From Escherichia phage vB_Eco_SLUR25, in sequence record LT907986.1: a DNA stretch of 58,998 bases. The stretch is one strand, 5' to 3'. Each line of letters opens with the position of its first letter. Position 1 is the stretch's first letter. Positions 1-58,998 of this stretch are shown here, in pieces. A program made the position numbers and the translations under genes. The notes under the pieces were generated by a model. It had not been told where the DNA came from. It ran no database searches and saw nothing but the letters and a program-made list of their open reading frames with translations.

Positions 1-481
1 ACTCCATGCACATATGCTTAGCGTCAATATAAACACATACAGCTTTCGGGTTTAAATGCTCCTGAATAGCGTCTGCAATCTGGTTAGTAAGACGTTCCTG
101 AACTTGCAGTCGACGGCTAAAAGCATCCACAACGCGAGACAGCTTACTGAGCCCAACGATCTTCCCATTTGGGACATACCCCACGACAGCATGGCCGATA
201 ATAGGAGCCATGTGATGCTCACAATGACTGTATACAGGAATATCACGGACAATGACCATTTCATTGGTGTTTTCCGCCCCATCCTCAAACGTCTTAAACA
301 GACCAGCAATATCTACATCATAACCGCTAAACCACGTTGCATAAGCTTTCGCTACACGCTCCGGAGTTTCCTCCAGCCCTGGGCGCAGAACCGCGCTAAC
401 TTCAATTTGGGATAGTAAAGTACGCACAGCGTTAGCAATACGGAATTGAACACCTTCACTATTAATACTATATTTAGACAT
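1..481 (-). CDS. folE: GTP cyclohydrolase I (FolE), N-terminal part; gene continues across the window junction into 58744..58998
   Basis: Reverse translation from ATG at 481..479 gives MSKYSINSEGVQFRIANAVRTLL...VYSHCEHHMAPIIGHAVVGYVP...; the CEHH core and length fit FolE; frame continues into the end-of-window copy. Confidence 0.75.
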   Translation of the reverse strand, partial: MSKYSINSEGVQFRIANAVRTLLSQIEVSAVLRPGLEETPERVAKAYATWFSGYDVDIAGLFKTFEDGAENTNEMVIVRDIPVYSHCEHHMAPIIGHAVVGYVPNGKIVGLSKLSRVVDAFSRRLQVQERLTNQIADAIQEHLNPKAVCVYIDAKHMCME

Positions 482-515
482 GGTTTGCAGTTTCCTTGTT
501 GTTAATGTGGTCATA

Positions 516-1037
516 TTACAGGCTATAGTTTACGTGACATTTCGAAGTTTCTTCGATGGTGCATTCTACAAGTTGAACACCATGTTCGTCAAGCAGCTGT
601 GGTCCAATTACTTCAACCATGTACGCAGCTAAGTTTTCAGCGGTCGGGTTGAATGGAAGTGACACCAGCGAACCTAAATAATCCATTTGATCCCGATGCG
701 ACATATTGTCCATAGTTGTCGTATCTACAAATTTATTTAAGCTCTCAATGAGCGGATCATGCTCCCAGTGCAGGAACTTATGGTCCCAGTTATCTTCCAG
801 CCACTGACACAGCGTAGTTTTAACCACACTAAAATCGATCACGCGTCCCACGTCGTCCAGCCCACCTTTTTCGCGAAGTGTGCCACAGCGAATAACTTTA
901 ACGTCCGTACGACCTTTCGGCGCAACCTTAAAGTGAAACTTATAGTTGTGACCATGAAGGTGGCGACACTTGCTTTCATGCCCTACAACACGATGTCCAG
1001 CGCAAATTTCATGTGAACGAATTACTGTATAACTCAT
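516..1037 (-). CDS. queD: 6-carboxy-5,6,7,8-tetrahydropterin synthase (QueD)
   Basis: 173 aa; CxxxHGH signature (CRHLHGHNY) of QueD/PTPS family; adjacent to folE/queC/queE. Confidence 0.85.
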   Translation of the reverse strand: MSYTVIRSHEICAGHRVVGHESKCRHLHGHNYKFHFKVAPKGRTDVKVIRCGTLREKGGLDDVGRVIDFSVVKTTLCQWLEDNWDHKFLHWEHDPLIESLNKFVDTTTMDNMSHRDQMDYLGSLVSLPFNPTAENLAAYMVEVIGPQLLDEHGVQLVECTIEETSKCHVNYSL

Positions 1038-1591
1038 TTTAATACCTCTTTAGACTGTTCAATTTCTAACGCACGCTGCGCCGACGCAATAATGTCTTTC
1101 AAATCTTCTACCAGATGTTTATGACCCCGTTCGCCAGGCTGCAACGCTTTTTTAATCAAATGCTGCAAAGCTGGGTTAGTTGTTTTCCAAGCTTCCAAGA
1201 CATCATACACGTCCACGATGCATTTTACAACATTGCCGTTTTCATCTTTACCATAAATAACTTTCTGATATTTATTCATGGGAATTTTAGATGGTTCATA
1301 TTTCGTAAAAATTGCGGTTTTATCAATTCTCCAGTCGGGCAAATTTGCTTCAATAGATTGTTTGACGTAATCATCCGCAACAATATATCTCCAGGCTATA
1401 ATATCTTGAACTTTATAAGGGCTATTCTCATCCATAGCCGAACGCCCTTCTATAGCCCAATCCCATCCATGTAATAGATTCTTAACGTGTGTGCCGTTGC
1501 GCAAACGAACTTCAAACTTCTCATTACGAAGAAAAATAGGCATTCCTTTACCGTCGTGTTGGTGCCAAATTTTATTCAAATTATCTTTCAT
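1034..1591 (-). CDS. hypothetical protein embedded in the 7-deazaguanine cluster
   Basis: ORF track 1034..1636; ATG at 1591 (MKDNLNKIW...) sits 2 nt after the stop of the upstream gene, so the shorter start is preferred; no recognisable motif. Confidence 0.5.
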   Translation of the reverse strand: MKDNLNKIWHQHDGKGMPIFLRNEKFEVRLRNGTHVKNLLHGWDWAIEGRSAMDENSPYKVQDIIAWRYIVADDYVKQSIEANLPDWRIDKTAIFTKYEPSKIPMNKYQKVIYGKDENGNVVKCIVDVYDVLEAWKTTNPALQHLIKKALQPGERGHKHLVEDLKDIIASAQRALEIEQSKEVLK

Positions 1592-1593
1592 TT

Positions 1594-2073
1594 TTACGCT
1601 CTTGCTGTACGTGAATGAACTTCGTAAACAACCCAAAGGATAGCGGATGCTGTGAACTTACTTAAGCTCATTGCTACCATTGATCCCGGATTAACAATAC
1701 CTATAATACTTAAGAACACAATGGAGTCAATCGGTACAGCTACCAAAGAGCTGATAAATACGCGTTGATGAAAAGGCTTCTTGGTGACCGTGTATACTAC
1801 ATAATCAGCAAACTCACTAAGCGCAAAAGACGCAACGGATGCAACTACAACCGCAGGATTACCGAACACCCAGCTAAGGATGCAACCAACGATCATTGCA
1901 GGGATAACGCCTTTGCCAGCGTTACGCTGTGCGTAATCACGCAGAACAAAGATAATGCCTACAAAGAAAGCCATCATTGGGACTACGCCAAGTGGCGTAT
2001 TAAGCATCGGAAGGTAGGAAAAGCCCAGGTTTACGAATGTAATTGCAGCCAGATAAGCAACGATAAATTTCAT
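1594..2073 (-). CDS. multi-pass membrane protein, putative queuosine-precursor transporter (YhhQ/DUF165-like, short form)
   Basis: 159 aa, 4-5 hydrophobic helices; segments FFVGIIFVLRDY and VAVPIDSIVFLSIIG resemble recalled E. coli YhhQ; lies between queD and queC. Confidence 0.4.
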   Translation of the reverse strand: MKFIVAYLAAITFVNLGFSYLPMLNTPLGVVPMMAFFVGIIFVLRDYAQRNAGKGVIPAMIVGCILSWVFGNPAVVVASVASFALSEFADYVVYTVTKKPFHQRVFISSLVAVPIDSIVFLSIIGIVNPGSMVAMSLSKFTASAILWVVYEVHSRTARA

Positions 2074-2193
2074 ACTTTTGTTCTCCAGTTTTAACAGCGC
2101 TGTTCGCTGGTTGTTGGGTTTAAAAGCTTTAGTAGTATAGTTGGGTTACCGCACCCTAAACAATGCGCTAGCGGTGCGGTTTTCGCGGTAAGA

Positions 2194-2901
2194 TCAAGCT
2201 TTGCTAATAAATTCGCTGTACCCTTTAGCACGAAGTTTACACGCCGGGCATTCCCCGCAACCATACCCCCAGTCATGCAGAGTGCGGCGGACGCCATTAT
2301 AGCACGTATGGGACTGCTCAATTACTGTGGTTAAGAAACCAACCTTATCCGCCAGCTCAAACGTTTCTGCTTTATTCAAACGCATAAGCGGAGTAACAAA
2401 ATGGATATCTGTTTCATATCCAACGTTTAACGTAGCTTCAAGCAGATCTACAAACTGCTGGCGGCAATCCGGATAACCGCTATAGTCTGTTTCACAAACG
2501 CCTGTAACCACATATCGGGCTCCGACCTTCTGCGCGTAGGCGTGCGCGGTAGTCAGGAAAAGGGCATTACGGTTTGGCACAAAGCTTGCCGGAAGGTTGT
2601 TGTGCTGTTCGTGATGTTCGTTAACATCACCTTCGTTCCCGATTAAAGCACTATTGCCAATCTGTTTCAATGCAGGTAATTCAAAGACAACAAACGGGAC
2701 ATTGTGCTCTTTACAAATTTGATTAGCACAAGCCAGCTCAATGTTATGACGTTGACCGTATGCAAAACCAATAGCGTAGACTTTGTCATAGTTATTAAGT
2801 GCAAGACCTAGACAAGTCACGCTGTCCTGGCCGCCAGACAGGACGACAACGGCGGAGTTATGATTTTTTACAGGGAATACCAGTTTATCTAATTTATTCA
2901 T
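2194..2901 (-). CDS. queC: 7-cyano-7-deazaguanine synthase (QueC), standalone (no amidotransferase fusion)
   Basis: 235 aa; PP-loop SGGQDS near N-terminus; C-terminal Cys cluster C..CGxCxxC. Confidence 0.9.
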   Translation of the reverse strand: MNKLDKLVFPVKNHNSAVVVLSGGQDSVTCLGLALNNYDKVYAIGFAYGQRHNIELACANQICKEHNVPFVVFELPALKQIGNSALIGNEGDVNEHHEQHNNLPASFVPNRNALFLTTAHAYAQKVGARYVVTGVCETDYSGYPDCRQQFVDLLEATLNVGYETDIHFVTPLMRLNKAETFELADKVGFLTTVIEQSHTCYNGVRRTLHDWGYGCGECPACKLRAKGYSEFISKA

Positions 2902-2902
2902 T

Positions 2903-3091
2903 TTAGAAACCTTTAAGGCTAATATTAAGGTTAATGACTACTTGTTCAACTACAGCTTCAGAGGTTACCTGACGCTGGTGTATCTCAAGCTCCGAATGTA
3001 TTTTCTTGGATGCAGCACGACAAATAGCGTCATTCAACTCGTCTTGTAAACGTTGAATTTTCTGCATAAGGATTACAGTTTCTTCATTCAT
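2903..3091 (-). CDS. small hypothetical protein (tandem paralog 1)
   Basis: 62 aa ORF; sequence pattern similar to adjacent 3084..3296 product. Confidence 0.4.
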   Translation of the reverse strand: MNEETVILMQKIQRLQDELNDAICRAASKKIHSELEIHQRQVTSEAVVEQVVINLNISLKGF

Positions 3092-3296
3092 TTACTTCAC
3101 CTTTAATATCACAAGGGTTAATTGTTACGTTAGACATTACAATTGGATGATTGCGCGCTCCAATTGTGCTAACGTGATTAATATCTAATTCTACATGCAC
3201 GCCCTGCATAGTAGCGTGAGCAATTGCAGAATTAAGTTTTTCTACCAGCTCAGTGATCATTTCCTGATGCTGTTTCGCTTCTTCCAAAGTGATCAT
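3084..3296 (-). CDS. small hypothetical protein (tandem paralog 2); start may be the internal Met at 3260
   Basis: 70 aa ORF; ELVEKLNSAIAHATMQGVHVELDINHVS resembles DELNDAICRAASKKIHSELEIHQRQVTS of neighbour. Confidence 0.4.
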   Translation of the reverse strand: MITLEEAKQHQEMITELVEKLNSAIAHATMQGVHVELDINHVSTIGARNHPIVMSNVTINPCDIKGEVNE

Positions 3297-3552
3297 TTCT
3301 TTTCACCTTCACTAATGTTTGTTTATAATCCATACCTTCAAGGTCAACTTCTGCCATTTCACAAAAGTTATCATCTTCCCAGTATGATATCCATTTAGTT
3401 TCACTGTCCATCAACGTTGGCTCATACTCGAATCCGTAAACTGTACCGTCCTGATCCGTAGCCAGCCACCGTACCCATTCAGGGACATCAAGCTTATTAC
3501 CAAAGTATTCAACTTCTTTAGTATGCACAACCTGACTTAACACACGCATCAT
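3250..3552 (-). CDS. hypothetical protein embedded in the 7-deazaguanine cluster
   Basis: 100 aa ORF between queC and queE, acidic, no recognised motif. Confidence 0.45.
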   Translation of the reverse strand: MMRVLSQVVHTKEVEYFGNKLDVPEWVRWLATDQDGTVYGFEYEPTLMDSETKWISYWEDDNFCEMAEVDLEGMDYKQTLVKVKRNDHFGRSETASGNDH

Positions 3553-4256
3553 TCAACCCCGATATATTTGTGAACCTGAAGCTGCAACGTGTACCCGTGT
3601 TTCATACAGCTTTGGACAACGGCTTGGATGTTACTGTGGTTAAGGTCTTCATCCTGCTCGTCCATTGGCTGTAAATATATCTTACCCTTGAAACCCTTCG
3701 GAGGTCTAGCGATAAATGGCGTAGCTTGATGATCTAATGCCTGAAGCGGCAAACCATCTTCCACGTTTACACAGCACGCTTTAAGTACATATTTAAATGC
3801 GTTTGCGCGGTACAGCACAGTAGGATGAATTTTTGAAGTCTTGGGACTACATACAATTACAGGTAACTGGGAAAAGTTCTTAGGTAAAGGCATAGACCCA
3901 TTAGTTTCAATTTGCACCAAATAGCCGCGCGATAACAGTTGTTCAATAAACGGGTTAATTTGCTGACGGAACGGTTCACCCCCAGTGATAACCACAAGTG
4001 AGGTGCTATTGCCTGATTCCAGCTTACGGCTTTCGATTAAACGCATAATATCGACAATATGATAAAGACTACGACCAACAGTATAATCCGTATCACAGCC
4101 AGGACATTGCAGGTTGCACCCAGCAAGACGCACAAATACAGCAGGTTGGCCGCAGAATGGACCTTCACCCTGAATGGTAGAGAATACCGAATGCACGTCT
4201 AAATACATATCGTTTTCTTTAGAACGGGACTCGGGAGCTTGTTGATTAATATTCAT
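3549..4256 (-). CDS. queE: 7-carboxy-7-deazaguanine synthase (QueE), radical SAM
   Basis: 235 aa; radical-SAM Cys triad CNLQCPGC (CxxxCxxC) near N-terminus; overlaps upstream gene by 4 nt. Confidence 0.85.
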   Translation of the reverse strand: MNINQQAPESRSKENDMYLDVHSVFSTIQGEGPFCGQPAVFVRLAGCNLQCPGCDTDYTVGRSLYHIVDIMRLIESRKLESGNSTSLVVITGGEPFRQQINPFIEQLLSRGYLVQIETNGSMPLPKNFSQLPVIVCSPKTSKIHPTVLYRANAFKYVLKACCVNVEDGLPLQALDHQATPFIARPPKGFKGKIYLQPMDEQDEDLNHSNIQAVVQSCMKHGYTLQLQVHKYIGVE

Positions 4257-4278
4257 CTTAAATCCTCTAGTGAAAAAG

Positions 4279-4300
4279 AAAGCGCCTCATTGGGCGCTTT
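4279..4300 (-). terminator. rho-independent terminator-like hairpin after gene 4326..5129
   Basis: Stem AAAGCGCC/GGCGCTTT with 6-nt loop; minus-strand reading is followed by a T5 tract. Confidence 0.5.
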
Positions 4301-4325
4301 CATTATAACGTGATATGTTTTGATA

Positions 4326-5129
4326 TTACAAGCCGTTCAGGGCTTCCGGTACTGGCATAGGTACGCGACCAGTTACACCATTAAACTTCTTCCAACGTGC
4401 ATACTGAGTTTTAACAGTATCTTCGTTCAGACCGTGGCGACCAGCCAGATTCAGAACATAAGAGATCGGAGCAGGCTGACCCAGCGTAGCGCTAATCTGA
4501 TCCATCAGAGCCCAGGCACGACCGCAGGAAGTTTCAGGTTGTGGACGACGAACACCATTCTGTTCAGGCATACGGTTCGCTTCTTTCGCTTTTTCACGTT
4601 CAGCTTTTTCGCGGGCTTTTTCAGCAGCCTTTTCAGCCTGTTTAGCAGCGCGGATCTTGTCTTTGAAGCCTTTGATAGACGAATCCAGTTCGTCAACCAT
4701 GCTCTGCGCAGCAGTCACTGCACCGGACAGATCTTCACCTTTGGATTTTTTAACAACTGCTTTCAGATCTTTCAGAGCATTCTTTAAATGCTTCAGCTGT
4801 TCAGAACCCTTAGATTCTGCTTCCGTAATCTGTTCAACAGTGCTTTCATCGGTAATACCGGATAAAGCAAACTTCACGGTTTCAACTGCCTGGGAAAGAG
4901 CGGTAAATTTATTTTCAGCTTCAGTACGAATTTCAGCTTGTTTCTTTTCGGCGGCAGCTTTTTTCTCTGCTTCTTTTTTCTCTTTTGCTACGCGTGCAGC
5001 TTCAGCGGCAGCGGCTTTTTTAGCTTCTGCGTCGTTAGCAGTAGCTTCTTTCTTTGCAGGCTTAGCAGATTTTGCAGCGGCAGCAGCGGCTGCGGCAGCA
5101 GCGGCTTTCTTATCTTCAATATTACTCAT
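4326..5129 (-). CDS. Ala/Lys/Glu-rich low-complexity protein with a conserved C-terminal domain (paralogous to C-terminus of 20655..21269 product)
   Basis: ATG at 5129 with RBS GGAGTG 6 nt upstream (5138 is GTG); poly-Ala run encoded by GCN repeats near 5075..5110; C-terminus NGVRRP...W...LG.P...TV..QYARWKKFNG. Confidence 0.55.
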   Translation of the reverse strand: MSNIEDKKAAAAAAAAAAAKSAKPAKKEATANDAEAKKAAAAEAARVAKEKKEAEKKAAAEKKQAEIRTEAENKFTALSQAVETVKFALSGITDESTVEQITEAESKGSEQLKHLKNALKDLKAVVKKSKGEDLSGAVTAAQSMVDELDSSIKGFKDKIRAAKQAEKAAEKAREKAEREKAKEANRMPEQNGVRRPQPETSCGRAWALMDQISATLGQPAPISYVLNLAGRHGLNEDTVKTQYARWKKFNGVTGRVPMPVPEALNGL

Positions 5130-5256
5130 TTTCTTCACTCCGAATTATTATGGGTTCGTTTGTTACCAACGGGGTTAAATGTACCAAAGGATTTTGTGAC
5201 ACGCAACCCCTTACATAAACATTTTTAAAAATATTTTTGATCAGGGTTAGAACTTA

Positions 5257-16408: not shown

Positions 16409-18745
16409 TTATTTACTTAAGTCCTTGAAAACGCTCTCAATTGACTCATCTATATACCATCCCAATCCCCTGAAATTACGCTTCAACGCATCTTCACGCG
16501 TAACTGGAACGAGCGCACCCATATCTACAAGTTGTTTGATAGTAAGGTCTGTTGCAGTACCTGCTCCCATCCTGTGATTCTTGAATGCAGCTAGACCGTA
16601 AGTCCTGCGTGTGATAGTTGCCTTTGGAATAATACCGTCAACGCGCAGCTCCTTACGATCACATGCAATCTTACCGCCAAGATAGTCTTTGCAGACCTGA
16701 CAGATAGCCTTCACACGTGTTTCGTCATCACCGCCAATAGTACCTTTTTCCCATGCGTTGATCATAATGTCCTGACCGTGCGTAACAAAATCTACCGCCC
16801 ATTGCATGTGGTTTGGTTGCACCACAGGATTGATCCAGTTTTCCCCCACCGCTAACAGAGAAGCAAGACGCAAAGCTTTAAGGTGTGCACGGTTCCACGG
16901 CTGACGGATTGCTTCGTCTTTGGTTGCGTTGATGTGTTCATCACATAACAGGTTAAACTCCCGTTCAATCCTTTCAGCTTCAGGGCTTAACTGGACTGTG
17001 ACAGTTTGAAACTTCGCCATTGTTACTAAGGTGTGGTTAACAAGATGGCACACCATGTCCTTTAACTGCTGGGGCATTATAATCTCAGGGTTTTCATTTG
17101 CAGGAACTCGATCTCCTTCATATTGCACAATGTGGAAACGGGACAAGAAACCGTCTTCCATCATTTCACGAGTTAATGCTTCAAAGAAAGTGTCCGGTGT
17201 TGTTTCTCCCAGCACGCTGAACGCTACCCCTTCCATCGTTTTGGTATTATTAGCCTTATCAGAATATCCAATACCGCCAACAACATCCATTGCGCCAGAT
17301 TTTTGATATACATCTGTGATAGTTTGCTTTAGAGTATAGTTTGCAGTACCAGGCTGAGCTGTTGCCATACCTTTGATGGTTTTGCCAAACTCTCCGTTAA
17401 TGTTCACAAACGAACTATGATCCGCAAAACTTTTACGCAATGCAGGACCGGACGCATAGTTAGTCATGTCTACAAATTCATGAACTTGCGGTAATTGCTC
17501 CCCTACTTGCTTGCAAATATAGCTGGGTCCGGCGTGAAGCATCTCTTTACCCACACCTGAGCGAGCGATAAGCACAAAGTAACCGTTCAGCCCTGTGTTG
17601 GTGATAGTATTCCATACCTTACCGCACACACCAGACAGAAATGCTAACGATGCGGTGATTGCAATTTCTTTCACCGGACGTTGCGATGCTTTGTAGATGT
17701 ACTTCGCAAGCTCCCCAGCAAGCCCCGGCGGCCACTCAATAGCGGTTGCATCAATAGACGTACTTTCTGCAACTACTATTTGACCGGAAGGACTAACTGT
17801 GGTTACAGGCATCTCGGTTACTTGCTGCATTGTGCTGTGTGCGGCTTGCATACGGGCAGCGTAATCCCGCGCCAGCGCAGCTACGTTTTCCTGGGCAATG
17901 CGCTCACGCTCCATGCGACCTCGACACATACGCAAGCAACGGTCAATATGAACATTGTTCTTATTAGCCTTCTCACGTTTGCCCAGTGCACTATAACGGA
18001 ACAGACGGCGACATTGCTCATTACTTTCCGTGTAGAATGCATACATAGAAATGAGGGCAAGGTCTGCTTCAGACTGGGAAGGGAAACCCATTTCAACCCA
18101 TTCACCATTAAATAACCGCGCATACTTATCGCCGTTGTCTGCTTCAAGTGCACGCTGATGAATAGTTGCATCATCTTCTACCGGATCTTTTTCTACCAGT
18201 TCAATTTCATATGTCTTGCGCTGAAGATCAATTTCATTCACAAGCATAGTAAGGTAATGATCACGTTCTGCAACTGGTTTGTTGTAGACAGGATTACCAG
18301 TGCAGATAATAAAACGCTCCTGACTATAAACCTCGACACCATCACGTCGACGACCTTTACCGATGTTACCTCTTAACCACAGGTGAACACCCAAGCCTGA
18401 GCGACTCACTTCGGTGTAAGTATCGAACGCAGTCATGATCTGTTCGAAGCGGCGCAACTGTTCCGGCGTCGTGTGCTTTTTGGGATCCGGTTCATTGGTT
18501 GCATTCTTCACATCCAGGTCGATGCAGGTGAACGGGTCTTGTGCGGTAAGCACAAAGCCAATATAAGGTTTATTGAAATGAGCGGCACAACCTTTGGCAG
18601 CTTCAAACGTCATAAGCATATCCGGATCGGTAACGTCCGCCGCCATCAAACGTCCAATATCGTTATCCCATACGAGCGGTTTTTTATCCGCATCGGCGAC
18701 CGCCCATTGTGGGAAAGCTTTAATTTCAGCGGGAAACAGTTCCAT
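16409..18745 (-). CDS. DNA primase/helicase (primase-polymerase-like N-terminus, D5/DUF3987-like helicase C-terminus)
   Basis: 778 aa from ATG 18745; Walker A-like GVGKE; overall size and architecture typical of phage primase-helicases; family assignment from memory. Confidence 0.6.
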   Translation of the reverse strand: MELFPAEIKAFPQWAVADADKKPLVWDNDIGRLMAADVTDPDMLMTFEAAKGCAAHFNKPYIGFVLTAQDPFTCIDLDVKNATNEPDPKKHTTPEQLRRFEQIMTAFDTYTEVSRSGLGVHLWLRGNIGKGRRRDGVEVYSQERFIICTGNPVYNKPVAERDHYLTMLVNEIDLQRKTYEIELVEKDPVEDDATIHQRALEADNGDKYARLFNGEWVEMGFPSQSEADLALISMYAFYTESNEQCRRLFRYSALGKREKANKNNVHIDRCLRMCRGRMERERIAQENVAALARDYAARMQAAHSTMQQVTEMPVTTVSPSGQIVVAESTSIDATAIEWPPGLAGELAKYIYKASQRPVKEIAITASLAFLSGVCGKVWNTITNTGLNGYFVLIARSGVGKEMLHAGPSYICKQVGEQLPQVHEFVDMTNYASGPALRKSFADHSSFVNINGEFGKTIKGMATAQPGTANYTLKQTITDVYQKSGAMDVVGGIGYSDKANNTKTMEGVAFSVLGETTPDTFFEALTREMMEDGFLSRFHIVQYEGDRVPANENPEIIMPQQLKDMVCHLVNHTLVTMAKFQTVTVQLSPEAERIEREFNLLCDEHINATKDEAIRQPWNRAHLKALRLASLLAVGENWINPVVQPNHMQWAVDFVTHGQDIMINAWEKGTIGGDDETRVKAICQVCKDYLGGKIACDRKELRVDGIIPKATITRRTYGLAAFKNHRMGAGTATDLTIKQLVDMGALVPVTREDALKRNFRGLGWYIDESIESVFKDLSK

Positions 18746-18747
18746 TA

Positions 18748-18972
18748 TCAGCCTCGCATCATTGCAGGACCGCAAGACCGTAATGCTTCAACAAATTGTT
18801 CTGCATTACTTTTTATAGCTTTGACAGCATTTTGTGCATCCAGGTAAGATTCAAACTTGCCCAAATAAAGGATCTTACCAGCCACCATGACGTGAGCGGT
18901 ACGAGCAACGTTTCCACCAATGTAGTACCCGTTACGTTTTAAAAGTGTTAACTGTTCGTCATTAAGAGCCAT
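18748..18972 (-). CDS. hypothetical protein (possible AP2-like fold)
   Basis: ATG at 18972 (MALNDEQLTLL...) with GGAGGA upstream. Confidence 0.4.
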   Translation of the reverse strand: MALNDEQLTLLKRNGYYIGGNVARTAHVMVAGKILYLGKFESYLDAQNAVKAIKSNAEQFVEALRSCGPAMMRG

Positions 18973-19264
18973 AGATCTGTTTCCTCCGCCATTCTTCGTA
19001 TGCTGAATTATTTGCGTCATATACTTCACAAGCGTCTTTCATGCTGTCATACAGTCCAAGGAAAGTTCGCCTTGTTTCTCCGCCTACATCTACCCATGTT
19101 AATCGGGCGAGCCATTTACCAGTTTTATAATCGAAAGTAACTCCCTCACGCCCGCTCACATTTTCCCGCGGAACTCGGGGCTTTCGGCGTCCGAGTCCAC
19201 GACCTTTGAAATTACTACCCGGAACAGTCCTGCACTTACGACCCACGACCAACCTCCGGCACAA
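18962..19264 (-). CDS. AP2-domain DNA-binding protein (start TTG 19264 or GTG 19246)
   Basis: GVTFDYKTGKWLARLTWVDVGGETRRTFLGLYDSMKDACEVYD matches AP2 pattern; only non-ATG starts available; overlaps 3' end of upstream HTH gene. Confidence 0.5.
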   Translation of the reverse strand: MCRRLVVGRKCRTVPGSNFKGRGLGRRKPRVPRENVSGREGVTFDYKTGKWLARLTWVDVGGETRRTFLGLYDSMKDACEVYDANNSAYEEWRRKQIYGS

Positions 19265-24943: not shown

Positions 24944-25483
24944 ATGAGCTGTCAAAAATGTAACGGAACGGGAATGGTTGATAGTGGTGGAGTTCAACCG
25001 TGGGGTGATCCTATTCTGGTGGAGTGCGATTGTTTATATCGTGAGCGCGATGCTTGGGAGCTGGATCAAGCTGGAGGTTATTACTCCCGCCATGTTATGG
25101 CAATGACATCCGAAGGTTTGCACAGCAAAGGTGATATTGCTGCGGAGCTAGGCTATCGTGACATGCGCATTGACCAGCTAGAAGCTGAATGGCGTGCTCA
25201 GGAAGAACGTGCAGAAAATGCTGAGACGGATCTTGTCGACATGCGTGCTGCTGAGCACGCTCTATCCGATTCTTATATTCGTTTGCGTCAAATTGTTGGT
25301 GCAATGAATCCGCCTGGTGTGAGCAGCGAAGAGGTGTGGGCGCATACCGAGAAGAAGGCTCAAGAGTTGCGTGATCGCTGCGAAGCTCTGGAAGCTGTAG
25401 CAAAGGACTTCCTGCGTCGTAATAAATATGGTCCTTTGTTCTATCGTGATCTGTATAACCGTTTTAAGGAGATTGTAAAATGA
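24944..25483 (+). CDS. hypothetical protein with N-terminal Cys4 zinc-ribbon-like motif
   Basis: ATG 24944 with GGTGGAG RBS; CQKCNGTG ... ECDC. Confidence 0.5.
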   Translation: MSCQKCNGTGMVDSGGVQPWGDPILVECDCLYRERDAWELDQAGGYYSRHVMAMTSEGLHSKGDIAAELGYRDMRIDQLEAEWRAQEERAENAETDLVDMRAAEHALSDSYIRLRQIVGAMNPPGVSSEEVWAHTEKKAQELRDRCEALEAVAKDFLRRNKYGPLFYRDLYNRFKEIVK

Positions 25484-25749
25484 TTACTGCTCAAGAAGCT
25501 CGTGAATTAAGCGATAAGCTGGATATTAGCGAAGATATTGAATTTATCAGTGACAGCATTCGCGTAGCTGCTACAAAGGGATACAATAAAGTATCACTGG
25601 TAACCAAATACGGCGCTGTTGGCAATCCTGACACTCAAGACCCGACCACTATGAAGATTGCTAAATGGTTAGCTGATTCTGGTTTTACGGTGTTATATTA
25701 TCCTTCAATGGACCAACGTGATAACGAGCGTACTGAGGTGGCATGGTGA
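25480..25749 (+). CDS. hypothetical protein
   Basis: 89 aa ORF overlapping upstream stop. Confidence 0.5.
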   Translation: MITAQEARELSDKLDISEDIEFISDSIRVAATKGYNKVSLVTKYGAVGNPDTQDPTTMKIAKWLADSGFTVLYYPSMDQRDNERTEVAW

Positions 25750-39680: not shown

Positions 39681-40078
39681 AAGCGCGCAGACAGTTAATT
39701 GATAAGAAGATCCTCCAATGGGAACTAAATAGTAAAGTCCCCGGCGGGGGATCTTCTTTATTATCGCAACTGCAAAAGGTTGAGGAACAGTCTGGTAAGA
39801 CGCCACCTAAGCTTAAAGAATATCGGGAAAAGGAAATACCGATTTGCTTCGAATATCTATCTACTCTATTTGATGATATTTACACTGGAGGGGATTTTAG
39901 TTATACAGAATTGCACAGCTATCGAGTGACAATGGGCTTACATCTTCAACCGTACGAATGCGAAATACTGCGGCAGCTATGGCTTGAAAAGCGCGTGTCA
40001 GAAGCTGAACAAAATGCTAAACTCATGGAAAGTCAAATGCAAAATCAAAATAAAGGTAGAAGAAAAAGGAGAAGATAA
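39273..40078 (+). CDS. tail assembly chaperone frameshift product (gpGT-like) made by -1 programmed frameshift at 39671..39677
   Basis: -1 frame is open for 135 codons from the slippery site to TAA 40076..40078 with no start codon near its beginning; stop overlaps tape measure ATG (TAATG). Confidence 0.5.
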
Positions 40079-43000
40079 TGGCCGAAACCGCTTCGCTAGT
40101 AATCAGAGTTGACGCGAGAGGGATTAGTACCGCGGACTCTATGTTGCGGAACTTAGCGCGTACAGGTGACACAGCGGAGCGGTCTGCTCAACGTGTCACA
40201 TCAAGCTATAAAACATTGTCTAACACATCTAACGAACTTGCAACTGTCACAAGTCGTTTAGATGCTGCAATTGTAGGAATGATCAGCGTTGACACCATTA
40301 ACCGTGTTATTTCGCTATCGGACTCCTGGACTATCCTCACCAACAAACTTGAACTGGCTCGTACGGGTAATGAAACCGTTGCGGATGCACAGCAACGCGT
40401 GTTTGATATTGCCCAGCGGTCACGTACAAGCTTGGAAGCAACTGCAACTCTATATTCCCGTCTCCAGCGTGCAATGAAGAATACTGGTATGACGGGTATG
40501 GAGCTTGGACGTATCACTGAAACAATTAACAAAGCGATGATTGTTTCCGGTGCAACGTCACATGAAGCAAGCGCTGCCCTTATTCAGTTTTCGCAAGCGA
40601 TGGCATCCGGTGTTCTGCGAGGGGATGAATTCCGCTCTGTTGCAGAACAAGCACCCCGCTTAACTCAAATCATGTCCGATGCGTTAGGTGTTACCATTGG
40701 ACAATTGCGTGAAATGGCTTACAGCGGCAAGTTGAGCGCCGATGTGGTTATCAAATCGTTGTCTGGTGCTGCGGATACAATTGATAAAGAATTTAGCCGC
40801 ACTATGCCAACGTTTAACCAGCAATGGACGGTTGCAACAAACAACTTGACTAAGTTCATGGGCGAATCCCAAAAGACTCAAGGTGCGGTTGCTGCATTGG
40901 GACAGACGTTTGTTGCATTATCCGAAAACTTAGGAACGGTTGTAACGGTTGGTTCAGCTTTAGCCACAGTGATTACCGCCCGTATCATTACGGCAATGCT
41001 TGCTAAGACTAAAGCGTCTATAGCTGCTGCAAAAGCATCGCAGATGGAAGCTGCACAAACGGCGGCAACTACTGCGTTGATGCAAAGCTCTATTGGCGTT
41101 ACCGCGCAGAAAGCGGCGGCGGATCGTGCTGCTTCTCTTGCAGCGTTACAGGTTGCTCGCGGGTCATTAGCGGTTGCTAAAGGTACGGCAGCGGAAGCAG
41201 GCGCACGTCTTGCGCTTATTAACGCTACCCGTGCGCATTCTGCGGCAATTATGGCGGACGTACAAGCGCGGCAAGCGCTCAATGCTGCGCTTAATGCAAC
41301 TGTACCAGTCGCAAGCCGAGCAGCTACAGCAATGAGCGTGCTGCGCGGTGCTATGGGGTTAATTGGCGGTCCTGTTGGTGTAGCAATGCTGGCAGCGGGT
41401 GCAATTTACTCCTATAAAGCGTCGTTGGAAGCTGGTCGTGCGGAAAACAATCAGTTTGCGGATAGTGTTGATTCTGTACGCGAGAAACTGATGCAGATGA
41501 CAGAAGCTCAGTTGGCAGCTAACGCGGTCAAAGCTAGAGCAATCCTTCCGGAACTTGAAGAGCAAATGAAGCGAGATCAAACTGCTCTTAAATCTGCTAC
41601 AGAAACACAGAAGTTCTATGAAGCACAATTAAAACGCCGTGCCGCGTCCGGTCGTGATACAGCTAGTGCCGAGAAGAACTTACAAATTGCAACGGATAAC
41701 GTCAAGCTTGCTGCCGAGCGTGCTGAAGAAGCTCAACGTCGTTACAACAATGTCTTAGAAATGACAAGCCCTGCTATCGAGAAAATAATTCCGTTAGCTC
41801 GTCAGCTTGCTGCTGATATGAAGGCTGTTCTTAGCATCAAATCCGGTCCACTTATTGACGAGAAAGTCCTTGACCGTTTTAAAGGTCAGCTAGGTGATGT
41901 TAACCGTGAGATTGATGTTAACACGGTTAAGGGTGCTGGCAATGCTCGCCAAGCTGCAATCCTTAGTGGACTGTATCAGACGCTGGGCAAGGATGCGGAT
42001 ACATACGGAAGTCTTATTCGCAAAGTAGCTATGGGCCAGGACGTTAGCTCAGAGGCAACAAGCGAATCCGCTAAAGAGCTTGTTAAATATGCTCAAGATT
42101 TAGCGCAAGCTCTTGGCAAAAACTACGATCTTGAAGAAGCAGAGAGAAACCGGACTAAAGCTACAAAAGACGGTATTAAAGCAGAACAACAGAACGCCAA
42201 AGTTATTGACGATTTACGCAACAAGCTTAACGAAGTAACCACAGGGGTTAAGGAAAACGCCAAAGCGAAAGCTCAAGCTGTGGCTTTAAACAAGCTCAAT
42301 ACGTCTGCAACTGCCGCGGAAAAAGCAGAAGTTGTTAGTCTTGCTGCTGCAATTTACGATGCAGAAGAAGCTCAAAAGAAACTGGACGAGCGTAAGAAGA
42401 ATCGTAAGTTTGCTCAGGGTCTGTTAGATGAAGGTATGACAGACTATGAAAAAATCGCGTACGAGCAAAATACAAAGATTGCAGAGCTTAATGCAAAACA
42501 GCGAGCCGATGATTTAGCTTACTATCAGCTTTACGAAGATGCTAAAACCCAAGTGCTGAAAAAAGCAAGCATGGAAAGGGAAAACCTGGATAAAGTTCTT
42601 ATGAACCGAATGATATCTTTTTCTCAGGAATCCTTAGGCATTATAATGGATGGCCTGTCACAGGCTGTAAGCCAGCAGAACTTCTTTTATAAAGCTATGT
42701 TTGCAGCACAGAAAGCAATGCAAATCCCATCAATCCTTGCTAACACGGAAACGGCAGCATCTGCGGCGCTTGCATGGGGTACACAGCAAGGAGGTGCTAC
42801 GATGGGTGCAACAATGGCAGCTATAGTGAAAACTATGGGTTATGCGTCCGCTGCCACTGTGGGTGGCTTAGCGATTGCTGGTATGGCTCACGACGGTATT
42901 GATAACGTTCCGCGTGAAGGTACATGGTTGCTGGATAAGGGTGAACGTGTACTTAATGCTCCGTCTAATGACAAGTTAAATCGCTTCCTGGATAGCCAAG

Positions 43001-43194
43001 CTTCACAACAAGGTGGCGTGAATATGTCCGGTGGTGTTAGCATTGTTCAGTATATCACGGTGCAAGGAAATGGCGATGCAGCACTCACACAAGCCATGCA
43101 AAAAGCGGCCCGTGATGGCGCTGAGCAGGGATATAATAAAGTTCTTAATGACTTTGCATCCCGAGGAACAATTCGTAGAACTGCAATGGGGTAA
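40078..43194 (+). CDS. tail tape measure protein
   Basis: 1038 aa, Ala-rich alpha-helical, follows chaperone frameshift pair. Confidence 0.8.
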   Translation: MAETASLVIRVDARGISTADSMLRNLARTGDTAERSAQRVTSSYKTLSNTSNELATVTSRLDAAIVGMISVDTINRVISLSDSWTILTNKLELARTGNETVADAQQRVFDIAQRSRTSLEATATLYSRLQRAMKNTGMTGMELGRITETINKAMIVSGATSHEASAALIQFSQAMASGVLRGDEFRSVAEQAPRLTQIMSDALGVTIGQLREMAYSGKLSADVVIKSLSGAADTIDKEFSRTMPTFNQQWTVATNNLTKFMGESQKTQGAVAALGQTFVALSENLGTVVTVGSALATVITARIITAMLAKTKASIAAAKASQMEAAQTAATTALMQSSIGVTAQKAAADRAASLAALQVARGSLAVAKGTAAEAGARLALINATRAHSAAIMADVQARQALNAALNATVPVASRAATAMSVLRGAMGLIGGPVGVAMLAAGAIYSYKASLEAGRAENNQFADSVDSVREKLMQMTEAQLAANAVKARAILPELEEQMKRDQTALKSATETQKFYEAQLKRRAASGRDTASAEKNLQIATDNVKLAAERAEEAQRRYNNVLEMTSPAIEKIIPLARQLAADMKAVLSIKSGPLIDEKVLDRFKGQLGDVNREIDVNTVKGAGNARQAAILSGLYQTLGKDADTYGSLIRKVAMGQDVSSEATSESAKELVKYAQDLAQALGKNYDLEEAERNRTKATKDGIKAEQQNAKVIDDLRNKLNEVTTGVKENAKAKAQAVALNKLNTSATAAEKAEVVSLAAAIYDAEEAQKKLDERKKNRKFAQGLLDEGMTDYEKIAYEQNTKIAELNAKQRADDLAYYQLYEDAKTQVLKKASMERENLDKVLMNRMISFSQESLGIIMDGLSQAVSQQNFFYKAMFAAQKAMQIPSILANTETAASAALAWGTQQGGATMGATMAAIVKTMGYASAATVGGLAIAGMAHDGIDNVPREGTWLLDKGERVLNAPSNDKLNRFLDSQASQQGGVNMSGGVSIVQYITVQGNGDAALTQAMQKAARDGAEQGYNKVLNDFASRGTIRRTAMG

Positions 43195-57315: not shown

Positions 57316-57542
57316 TAGCGATCCTCGATTGCTCTAATTGTGGTTAAATCTAATTCACAGGTTGGAGGGTATCCATAAAGTCCCATTTGTTTTCCTTGTG
57401 CATTAAACCATGTACCTGACGGATCCTGCCACTGCTTAGGTGTCTTGTGGAGAAATACTACTCTGTTTTCACCGTAATAATTAATTCTTACGCCCGTGTG
57501 AGTATATTTACGTTTACCTTTTGGTCTTCTTAAGTTAGCCAT
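57315..57542 (-). CDS. hypothetical protein
   Basis: 75 aa from ATG 57542 (57545 is TTG); overlaps dpdA stop. Confidence 0.4.
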   Translation of the reverse strand: MANLRRPKGKRKYTHTGVRINYYGENRVVFLHKTPKQWQDPSGTWFNAQGKQMGLYGYPPTCELDLTTIRAIEDR

Positions 57543-58462
57543 CAAAACAACTCCATTACACGATCACGGAATGTGCCGTCATGGGTAGCGTTAATGTTTG
57601 CAGCAATTACACCATACGCCCATAAGTTGAAGGCAGCACGTGATTCATAGATTGTTGATAAACGTTCGTAAGTGAAACCGTTTTGCTCAAGGTATTTAAG
57701 GACAGCGTCTTGTTCAATCTCAGTTAATGTTGAAACATGCTTACCAAAATGATGGCGGTCCGGTGACTTATCTGATACGCGCATTGGTCCCCACGGAGGG
57801 GTAACCACACTTCCAAACGCTGCTGCTTGAATCCAGGAGGATGAGTCGCAGCTATACCACGGATAACGTTCCATGATGGTTGTTGACGTAATACCAAACG
57901 CATGAAGTTTAATCTTAGCACGTCCGCTACCGTCGCAAATATATTTGTCCCACATGCGGTCAAGCCAAGTCTTAAGCGTGTCCGTTGAACGTCCCACCAT
58001 ACCCCCAATGGTGATATATTCGTAGTTCTTCATGTAGTATTCAAGATAGCGGAAGTCCTCCCCAAAGTGAAAGCAAGGTAACGGTTTAGCACCGCGTGCT
58101 TCCATTTCAAGCTGGTTACGGTAGGTTTGCAACGGATCACCGATACCATCAAGCACCGATGCCATTACCGCACCATCTTCTACCCGCAAAATATCTTTAT
58201 TGCGCTTGATGTATTCGCAGTATTCAACAATATCAATGTGAGCACCTAACGAGTGCGCGGAGAATGCACCGGAGTCGAGAAACACTTTAGCTCCATCCGC
58301 ACGCATCTGATCAACATACTTTTGACGTCCAACGTAGTGGTATGATTCCAAAATATGGGGCAGATTGCGCGTGATATTTTTCTCATGCTCCGACAGCTTT
58401 TCATAACGCTGCTGTCCAGGCATATATCCGTTCGTGTAAACTGCTGCCATAAAAACGTTCAT
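57542..58462 (-). CDS. dpdA: DpdA-like DNA 7-deazaguanine transglycosylase (TGT-fold)
   Basis: 306 aa; LDSGAF matches TGT catalytic Asp region (DSGGFQ-like); ITIGGMVG matches TGT GG(L/M)(S/V)G motif; clustered with folE/queD/queC/queE. Confidence 0.75.
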   Translation of the reverse strand: MNVFMAAVYTNGYMPGQQRYEKLSEHEKNITRNLPHILESYHYVGRQKYVDQMRADGAKVFLDSGAFSAHSLGAHIDIVEYCEYIKRNKDILRVEDGAVMASVLDGIGDPLQTYRNQLEMEARGAKPLPCFHFGEDFRYLEYYMKNYEYITIGGMVGRSTDTLKTWLDRMWDKYICDGSGRAKIKLHAFGITSTTIMERYPWYSCDSSSWIQAAAFGSVVTPPWGPMRVSDKSPDRHHFGKHVSTLTEIEQDAVLKYLEQNGFTYERLSTIYESRAAFNLWAYGVIAANINATHDGTFRDRVMELF

Positions 58463-58465
58463 TTC

Positions 58466-58672
58466 TTACTCCACGTTGTTTAAAGCGACTACTTCAATGA
58501 GATAATTTTCTCTCTTAAAGCATTGCTCGCTTAAGATCTGTTCAACTCTAACATGCAGATCCGCATGAATTTGTTTTGCGTTACTGCTTTCAGCAATACC
58601 GTCCATACATAACAGAACTCTGAAAGTACCTTTTTCTACAGCTCGAACGTTGAAAAAGTATTGTCTTACCAT
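58466..58672 (-). CDS. small hypothetical protein between folE and dpdA
   Basis: ATG 58672 with GGAGGA RBS 3 nt upstream; 68 aa. Confidence 0.4.
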   Translation of the reverse strand: MVRQYFFNVRAVEKGTFRVLLCMDGIAESSNAKQIHADLHVRVEQILSEQCFKRENYLIEVVALNNVE

Positions 58673-58743: not shown

Positions 58744-58998
58744 TTATTTACAAGCTTCAAGGAACTCCCGGCGCCATTCTTTACCAATATTGCTACCATG
58801 CTCCAGTTCTGTAGCGCCCCGGAACGCTTTGGTAATAGTAGAGCTGCCGCATACCTGTTTAACACCGCGCGACTCCATGCACATATGCTTAGCGTCAATA
58901 TAAACACATACAGCTTTCGGGTTTAAATGCTCCTGAATAGCGTCTGCAATCTGGTTAGTAAGACGTTCCTGAACTTGCAGTCGACGGCTAAAAGCATC
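58744..58998 (-). CDS. folE: GTP cyclohydrolase I (FolE), C-terminal part (stop at 58744..58746); 58872..58998 duplicates 1..127
   Basis: Reading frame from 1..481 continues through the junction: ...[46 protein letters not shown]. Confidence 0.7.
58872..58998. repeat. 127-bp exact direct repeat of window positions 1..127 (terminal overlap of a circular assembly)
   Basis: Last 127 nt are identical to first 127 nt; repeat lies inside the folE coding sequence. Confidence 0.9.

Follow-up and report, generated by a model that had tools for sequence, protein, structure and literature searches.

7-Deazaguanine modification of DNA is a defining trait of the Queuovirinae and has been worked out in the Seuratvirus phage CAjan (Hutinet et al., 2019, PMC6884629; Kot et al., 2020, PMC7544227). 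In CAjan DNA, liquid chromatography-tandem mass spectrometry detected 70,628 residues of 2'-deoxy-preQ0 (dPreQ0) per 10^6 nucleotides (nt), about 32% of G, with dADG, dG+, dPreQ1 and dQ each at fewer than 6 per 10^6 nt, and deletion of dpdA abolished the modification and left the DNA to be cut by every enzyme tested (PMC6884629). Nanopore sequencing placed the modified sites at GA and GGC and made the modification dependent on folE, queC and dpdA but not on yhhQ, the deletion of which was like wild type; in the folE and queC mutants a residual modification, about 12-fold lower, was attributed to host-derived preQ0 (PMC7544227). The window analysed here, the whole of a 58,998-nt stretch of DNA (Escherichia phage vB_Eco_SLUR25, LT907986.1), carries on its minus strand a cluster with folE, queD, queC, queE and dpdA genes, by which the phage, as far as its sequence allows one to judge, very probably makes dPreQ0-modified DNA in the manner of the Seuratvirus (CAjan-type) module. 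The genome is identical to that of Escherichia phage vB_Eco_SLUR63, under which name it is discussed below.

A second described module is that of phage 9g, which belongs to the sister genus Nonagvirus within the Queuovirinae and carries dG+ (2'-deoxyarchaeosine). The folE, queD and queE genes of 9g complement the corresponding E. coli mutants, and its dpdA, which does not complement a deletion of E. coli tgt, by itself puts preQ0 into plasmid DNA. The 9g cluster has the same dpdA-folE-queD...queE layout adjoining DNA polymerase genes, and its DpdA is 69% identical to that of SLUR63 (FolE 81%, QueD 71%, QueE 63%). It differs in having a Gat-QueC fusion of 471 amino acids (aa) that gives dG+, whereas SLUR63 has a QueC of 235 aa without Gat and hence not the fusion that marks the 9g-type module; moreover, no yhhQ is annotated in the 9g cluster. 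In the bacterial Dpd restriction-modification island (DpdA/DpdB/DpdC), reportedly described by Thiaville et al. in 2016, a DpdA transglycosylase likewise puts preQ0 into DNA, but there the product is dADG and the role is defence, as against dPreQ0 and counter-defence in the phage. The DpdB ATPase and DpdC (preQ0 to ADG) of the island were not recognised in SLUR63, the similarity between the two DpdA proteins is very remote (E about 1e-3), and phage DpdA has about 100 aa fewer than the bacterial models. With arcTGT and TGT, phage DpdA would share the base-exchange chemistry and, in a published homology model, a TIM barrel with a pair of catalytic aspartates, but these enzymes act on tRNA rather than on double-stranded DNA (dsDNA), and phage DpdA has no C-terminal RNA-binding domains.

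Positions 1-4300 of the window match SLUR63 (LR025196.1, 58,998 bp; Queuovirinae, Seuratvirus) at 100% over their full length (megablast against a phage collection). Another 32 records, nearly all from coliphages, span 80% or more of the same segment, in most cases at about 90-95% identity. All figures given for SLUR63 are those of the window genome itself, the record being 100% identical in another rotation. Window positions 1-127 are identical to 58872-58998, and the ends of LR025196.1 are also identical to each other over 127 nt; the two records are therefore one circular assembly opened at different points, with 58,871 bp of unique sequence. The 127-nt duplication is presumably the mark of a k=127 assembler overlap and not biology. 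Since the contig is circular, folE is cut by the window boundary and dpdA adjoins the folE region: 58744-58871 joined to 1-481 gives an intact open reading frame (ORF) of 202 aa, which matches the GenBank coding sequence (CDS) 18375..18983. A preliminary description of the window had confined the pathway genes to 1-4256 and put a DpdA-like gene at the other end. The genes do lie there, except that the segment holds only the first 160 codons of folE, which ends at 58744; the second gene is indeed dpdA, yet it is not distant and belongs to the same cluster, about 280 nt downstream of folE on the circle. The closed cluster spans about 5.6 kb in the order dpdA-orf68-folE-queD-orf185-yhhQ-queC-orf62-orf70-orf100-queE.

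CAjan shares with SLUR63 the genus, the gene order and the module, including a standalone QueC without amidotransferase or QueF. Genome-wide, 90.7% of SLUR63 is covered by CAjan at 95.6% identity (blastn), and the SLUR63 ORFs without a CAjan counterpart (tblastn) are all of 100 aa or fewer, AP2-like small ORFs among them, none with an enzyme signature. The two clusters differ in their alleles of FolE, QueD and ORF185 and in orf68, which is unrelated to CAjan gp36, the ORF at the same position (27% identity, not conserved), and gives no Pfam or PHROG match. In addition, CAjan gp39 (107 aa, between queD and gp40) is missing from SLUR63, and SLUR63 ORF100, in the interval between queE and ORF70, is missing from CAjan. 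Near-identical DpdA, YhhQ-like protein, QueE and QueC thus stand beside diverged FolE, QueD, ORF185 and orf68, a mosaic that suggests a recombinational patchwork of the module.

FolE, QueD, QueC and QueE had been recognised together on the minus strand, and Pfam and NCBIfam profile searches agree for all four, with E-values that exclude chance. FolE, 85% identical to its CAjan counterpart, matches Pfam PF01227 (GTP_cyclohydroI) at 7.1e-64, passes the cut-offs of TIGR00063 (195.8 bits; cut-off 181.6), NF006825 (208.8 bits; cut-off 174) and NF006826, and has the Zn-binding CEHH motif at residue 87. QueD (79% identical to CAjan) matches Pfam PTPS PF01242 at 9.6e-22, with 77.7 bits against a gathering score of 22.4, and for QueE (99.1%) the best five NCBIfam matches are all QueE models, from 1.8e-27 to 1.9e-20. 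In QueC (97.9%) the Pfam QueC domain PF06508 (7.2e-75) takes up residues 17-230 of 235, and TIGR00364 scores 243.1 bits against a cut-off of 150.3. The motifs named in the preliminary description are in place, namely CRHLHGH (CxxxHGH) at residue 24 of QueD, the PP-loop SGGQDS at residue 22 of QueC, which also has the C-terminal Zn cysteine cluster C..(13)..CGECPAC, and the [4Fe-4S] motif CNLQCPGC (CxxxCxxC) at residue 47 of QueE. What the sequence shows directly is which genes are present, which catalytic motifs they encode and how closely their products match proteins studied by experiment in other phages.

QueC is standalone, as had been noted, with the QueC domain only and no GATase match in Pfam or NCBIfam. 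Its alignment with the 471-aa 9g Gat-QueC is limited to residues 241-457 of the latter, at 28.6% identity, which places SLUR63 QueC, judged from the alignment, in a separate QueC lineage without an amidotransferase domain. The 29% between queC and the 9g Gat-QueC gene (L008, 5207-6622) stands against 63-81% for FolE, QueD, QueE and DpdA; on these identities, Seuratvirus QueC is not simply a Gat-QueC minus Gat, and queC would have been replaced between the two sister genera.

DpdA is identical to CAjan DpdA at 306 of 306 residues. It matches PHROG 887 at 8.2e-96 and gives weak local matches, over residues 147-212 in the active-site region, to two bacterial DpdA hidden Markov models (NF041059, 2.2e-3; PADLOC DpdA, 1.3e-3), with no match in Pfam (TGT included) and none to PDB sequences or profiles. 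DpdA has 2,811 homologues. When it is aligned with 31 of them (68-75% identity), nine residues are invariant, namely D63, S64, F67, D105, H132, G153, G154, F189 and D206; they are the ones that Kot et al., from a homology model on arcTGT, took for the pair of catalytic aspartates and the residues of the preQ0/guanine pocket (PMC7544227). The assignment as DpdA, made at the level of sequence, rests on the identity to CAjan together with these conserved active-site residues. With it, the locus combines a complete GTP-to-preQ0 pathway and an adjoining DpdA1-type transglycosylase, which is the composition of the CAjan-type module.

Chemistry, gene dependence, target motifs and restriction protection have been established in CAjan and 9g and would carry over to SLUR63 by sequence identity. 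During infection, FolE would convert GTP into dihydroneopterin triphosphate (H2NTP), QueD would form 6-carboxytetrahydropterin (CPH4) from it, the radical-SAM enzyme QueE would turn the latter into 7-carboxy-7-deazaguanine (CDG), and QueC, with ATP and ammonia, would yield 7-cyano-7-deazaguanine (preQ0). DpdA, a member of the TGT superfamily, would then flip G out of the phage dsDNA after replication and swap in preQ0, mainly at GA/GGC, with Asp206 as the nucleophile and Asp63 as the general base, to give dPreQ0 at about 28-32% of guanines. GA and GGC together make up 28.2% of G in SLUR63 and 28.1% in CAjan, so that the same modification density would be expected. Many restriction enzymes of types I and II would cut the modified DNA only in part or not at all, and the YhhQ-like protein, which probably salvages external preQ0, would be dispensable. 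No QueF, ArcS, QueF-L, Gat or other tailoring enzyme was found in a proteome that was partly scanned with profiles and for the rest by tblastn against CAjan and by annotation, and no further queuosine-related gene is annotated among the 89 CDS of LR025196.1; with neither amidotransferase nor reductase, the pathway would end at preQ0. In keeping with the earlier remark that no QueF is recognisable, QueF-type matches were seen only on FolE (Pfam, 1.8e-5; TIGR03139, 2.5e-7), both of them sub-threshold and overlying the strong FolE match. Their reading as a reductase was rejected, and they were put down to the T-fold ancestry that FolE and QueF share.

The system is already known and the genome already published. 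The SLUR63 paper of 2017 noted queCDE and folE as characteristic of the genus and suggested that the DNA is modified as a protection against endonucleases (PMC5758909), and the BASEL Seuratvirus phages withstand restriction-modification systems of types I and II in vivo (PMC8594841). The preliminary description, because of the standalone QueC, the missing QueF and the presence of DpdA, had predicted that genomic G is replaced by a preQ0-type 7-deazaguanine for anti-restriction; this interpretation is correct and coincides with the published result for the genus, obtained in a phage with the same DpdA.

Several points weigh against a CAjan-like modification of SLUR63 DNA. We infer dPreQ0 at such density in SLUR63 virion DNA itself only by analogy. 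QueD, at 57.9 bits (1e-15), stays under the 89.25 cut-off of TIGR03367, and QueE scores under the equivalog cut-off of each of the five QueE models. FolE, QueD and ORF185 (85%, 79% and 61%) are the least CAjan-like parts, and flux could differ; ORF100 is missing from CAjan altogether. An independent confirmation of the DpdA fold was tried and did not succeed: the AlphaFold2 (AF2) model, built on a 32-sequence alignment whose members are all about 70% identical, is poor (predicted local distance difference test score, pLDDT, 61.7), and in Foldseek it has no match in the PDB at E <= 0.001. The non-significant top of the Foldseek list consists of TIM barrels, with arcTGT 1iq8 at rank 2 (E = 0.11), and bacterial TGTs.

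The interleaving of four unknown ORFs with the pathway genes bears on the nature of the final base. One of them, for example ORF100 or ORF185, could convert preQ0 into a tailored or different 7-deazaguanine (dADG, dG+, dPreQ1 or a new one), the more so as ORF100 and the N-terminal half of ORF185 are unlike CAjan and as the tailoring enzymes DpdL, DpdM and DpdN were discovered only recently beside such genes (PMC10516641). However, QueC has no Gat domain and the QueF-type matches are confined to FolE, as described above; ORF100, ORF62, ORF70 and ORF185 give no matches to enzyme families, metal-binding or cofactor motifs (Pfam, NCBIfam and PADLOC); and none of the ORFs specific to SLUR63 exceeds 100 aa. 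ORF62, ORF70 and ORF185 are present in CAjan too, where dPreQ0 alone was detected among the tested derivatives, and ORF100 sits in a slot of the presence/absence kind that accessory ORFs typically fill. We consider such tailoring very unlikely. The caveat of the preliminary description that an embedded ORF might modify the base further is thereby largely answered for the ORFs shared with CAjan, which yield no tested derivative, and ORF100 shows no enzyme signature. As candidates for tailoring enzymes, ORF100, ORF62, ORF70 and orf68 were dropped for want of an enzyme-family match in Pfam, NCBIfam, PHROG and PADLOC.

The same ORFs have features of their own. ORF185, 61% identical to its CAjan counterpart, consists of a variable N-terminal half, which differs from that of CAjan, and a C-terminal domain of about 75 residues (about residues 105-180) with an invariant core K107...A174. 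Many of its 972 homologues match only the C-terminal 30-45% or so (about 55-85 residues), and the core, VDVYDVLxAWxxxNPALQHLIKKALxPGxRGHKxxxxDLxDIxxSAxRA, recurs with differing N-termini in hundreds of phage proteins. ORF185 gave no credible match in Pfam (as a single sequence and with all 36 alignment members), NCBIfam, PADLOC, PDB sequences or AF2 with Foldseek; a reading as a DUF3310/SaV-like domain was dropped when no tool supported it. ORF62 and ORF70 are 87% and 96% identical to CAjan gp43 and gp44, the former with no credible Pfam match and the latter with none in Pfam or NCBIfam. Since ORF70 lacks a Pfam match, the label "radical SAM domain-containing" carried by its homologues (CAjan gp44, phrog_26258) is unsupported. 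ORF62, ORF70 and an 89-aa ORF at 25480-25749 look like weak paralogues (pairwise E of 3e-5 and 3e-4). ORF100 overlaps ORF70 by 47 nt and sits in a segment, 3298-3546, that CAjan does not cover; seven other phages have a near-identical copy and many a divergent allele, CAjan, KurtStettler and VogelGryff lack it, and phage Greed shares it at 99% nucleotide identity. ORF100 has no Pfam or PADLOC match. Its motif PEWxxWxATDxDGTxY is also the N-terminus of a metagenomic protein, P0204, which bears an ORF185-type C-terminal domain, and this combination hints that ORF100 and ORF185 may be exchangeable modules of one protein family.

It can be asked whether ORF185, the ORF62/ORF70 pair and ORF100 are accessory factors of the modification system and not passengers; they could, for example, set the specificity or density of DpdA, keep pathway intermediates from harming the metabolism of host or phage, or work against defences that recognise 7-deazaguanine DNA. 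We regard this as unlikely, though somewhat less so than tailoring. In a weaker variant, the divergent FolE-QueD-ORF185 patch would give a modification level other than that of CAjan. These small embedded ORFs, together with the role of the phage YhhQ, are the remaining biology of interest. The YhhQ-like protein, a short form of about 160 aa, is 99.4% identical to CAjan gp41. The preliminary description had called it a transporter. Most of its homologues have PF02592 and go by the name YhhQ or queuosine precursor transporter, whereas the direct evidence is marginal: Pfam Vut_1 (9.3e-6), at 26.5 bits, falls short of its gathering score of 27.2, and TIGR00697 (6.6e-5), at 22.8 bits, of its cut-off of 50.95.

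The homology of these genes to the tRNA-queuosine pathway, and the GenBank label of DpdA as a "queuosine tRNA-ribosyltransferase", would also fit a cluster that serves host tRNA, either by supplying more preQ0 or queuosine or through DpdA acting on tRNA, and not phage DNA, an option that the 2017 SLUR paper kept open (PMC5758909). It is effectively refuted in CAjan, where an identical DpdA is required for dPreQ0 in DNA (PMC6884629), and 9g DpdA likewise modifies plasmid DNA without replacing tgt. Furthermore, the 306-aa DpdA aligns only to the catalytic domain of arcTGT (residues 1-350), without the C-terminal tRNA-binding domains, and no QueF, QueA or QueG that would finish queuosine is encoded, as far as the partial profile scan of the proteome goes. 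A role in tRNA is accordingly highly improbable. It is scarcely conceivable that the cluster is decayed or merely carried along and inactive in this isolate, for which nothing specific speaks beyond the greater divergence of FolE and QueD from CAjan, as every ORF is intact, every catalytic motif is present, and synteny is kept in at least 33 phage genomes at 90-95% identity, the genes being a signature of the genus (PMC5758909).

If the DNA of SLUR63 is modified with dPreQ0 as proposed, it can be expected to withstand a wide range of restriction enzymes of types I and II and to lower the quality of nanopore base-calling. The practical value of the result is a well-founded annotation. Three GenBank labels can be improved, from "queuosine tRNA-ribosyltransferase" to DpdA, from "BcepGomrgp35" to QueC and from "organic radical activating enzyme" to QueE.

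Table 1. Features of the modification cluster and its upstream flank, in window coordinates (activities as predicted from sequence)
Feature	Position	Strand	Description
dpdA	57542..58462	-	306 aa; predicted DNA guanine transglycosylase, G to preQ0 in dsDNA; assigned by identity to CAjan
orf68	58466..58672	-	small ORF between dpdA and folE; annotated CDS in LR025196.1
folE, 3' part	58744..58998	-	58872-58998 duplicates window 1-127
folE, 5' part	1..481	-	first 160 codons; GTP cyclohydrolase I, GTP to H2NTP
queD	516..1037	-	6-carboxytetrahydropterin synthase, H2NTP to CPH4
ORF185 ("gp69", phrog_23361)	1034..1591	-	two-module protein; PHROG function unknown
yhhQ-like	1594..2073	-	159 aa; short VUT-family membrane protein, putative preQ0 importer
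queC	2194..2901	-	235 aa; preQ0 (7-cyano-7-deazaguanine) synthase, standalone
ORF62	2903..3091	-	phrog_24420, function unknown; conserved in genus
ORF70	3084..3296	-	phrog_26258
ORF100	3250..3552	-	phrog_1972, function unknown; accessory ORF, variable slot
queE	3549..4256	-	radical-SAM 7-carboxy-7-deazaguanine synthase, CPH4 to CDG
terminator-like hairpin and T-run	4278..4301	-	just upstream of queE; overlapped by promoter-like site 4331-4302

In consensus scans, the hairpin upstream of queE has a 9-bp stem with 6 GC pairs followed by TTTTT, and it lies between the stop codon of an alanine/lysine-rich ORF of 270 aa (4326-5138) and the start codon of queE. Directly 5' of it is a promoter-like TTGTAA-18-TATAAT. 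Promoter and terminator sites are, by these scans, no more numerous in the region than expected from shuffled sequence; the sites at 4278-4331 may mark the 5' boundary of the modification operon but are no more than a hint on the transcription unit.

Elsewhere in the genome, the break of LR025196.1 falls within the tape-measure gene, so that the CDS there (30..2825, window 40399-43194) lacks the N-terminal part of the 1038-aa ORF that is intact at 40078-43194 of the window. At 18748-19264 there are two overlapping minus-strand ORFs (93 and 100 aa) without a CAjan counterpart, the longer of which has a sub-threshold match to the AP2 DNA-binding domain (2.8e-4). The two could be what is left of an insertion of the homing-endonuclease type downstream of the primase gene, or partners of such an insertion. 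The largest segment without a CAjan nucleotide match, 48692-50466, lies in the gene for a 729-aa side tail fibre (48131-50320) and the start of the next ORF, a divergence that fits the hypervariability known for the lateral tail fibre locus of such phages.

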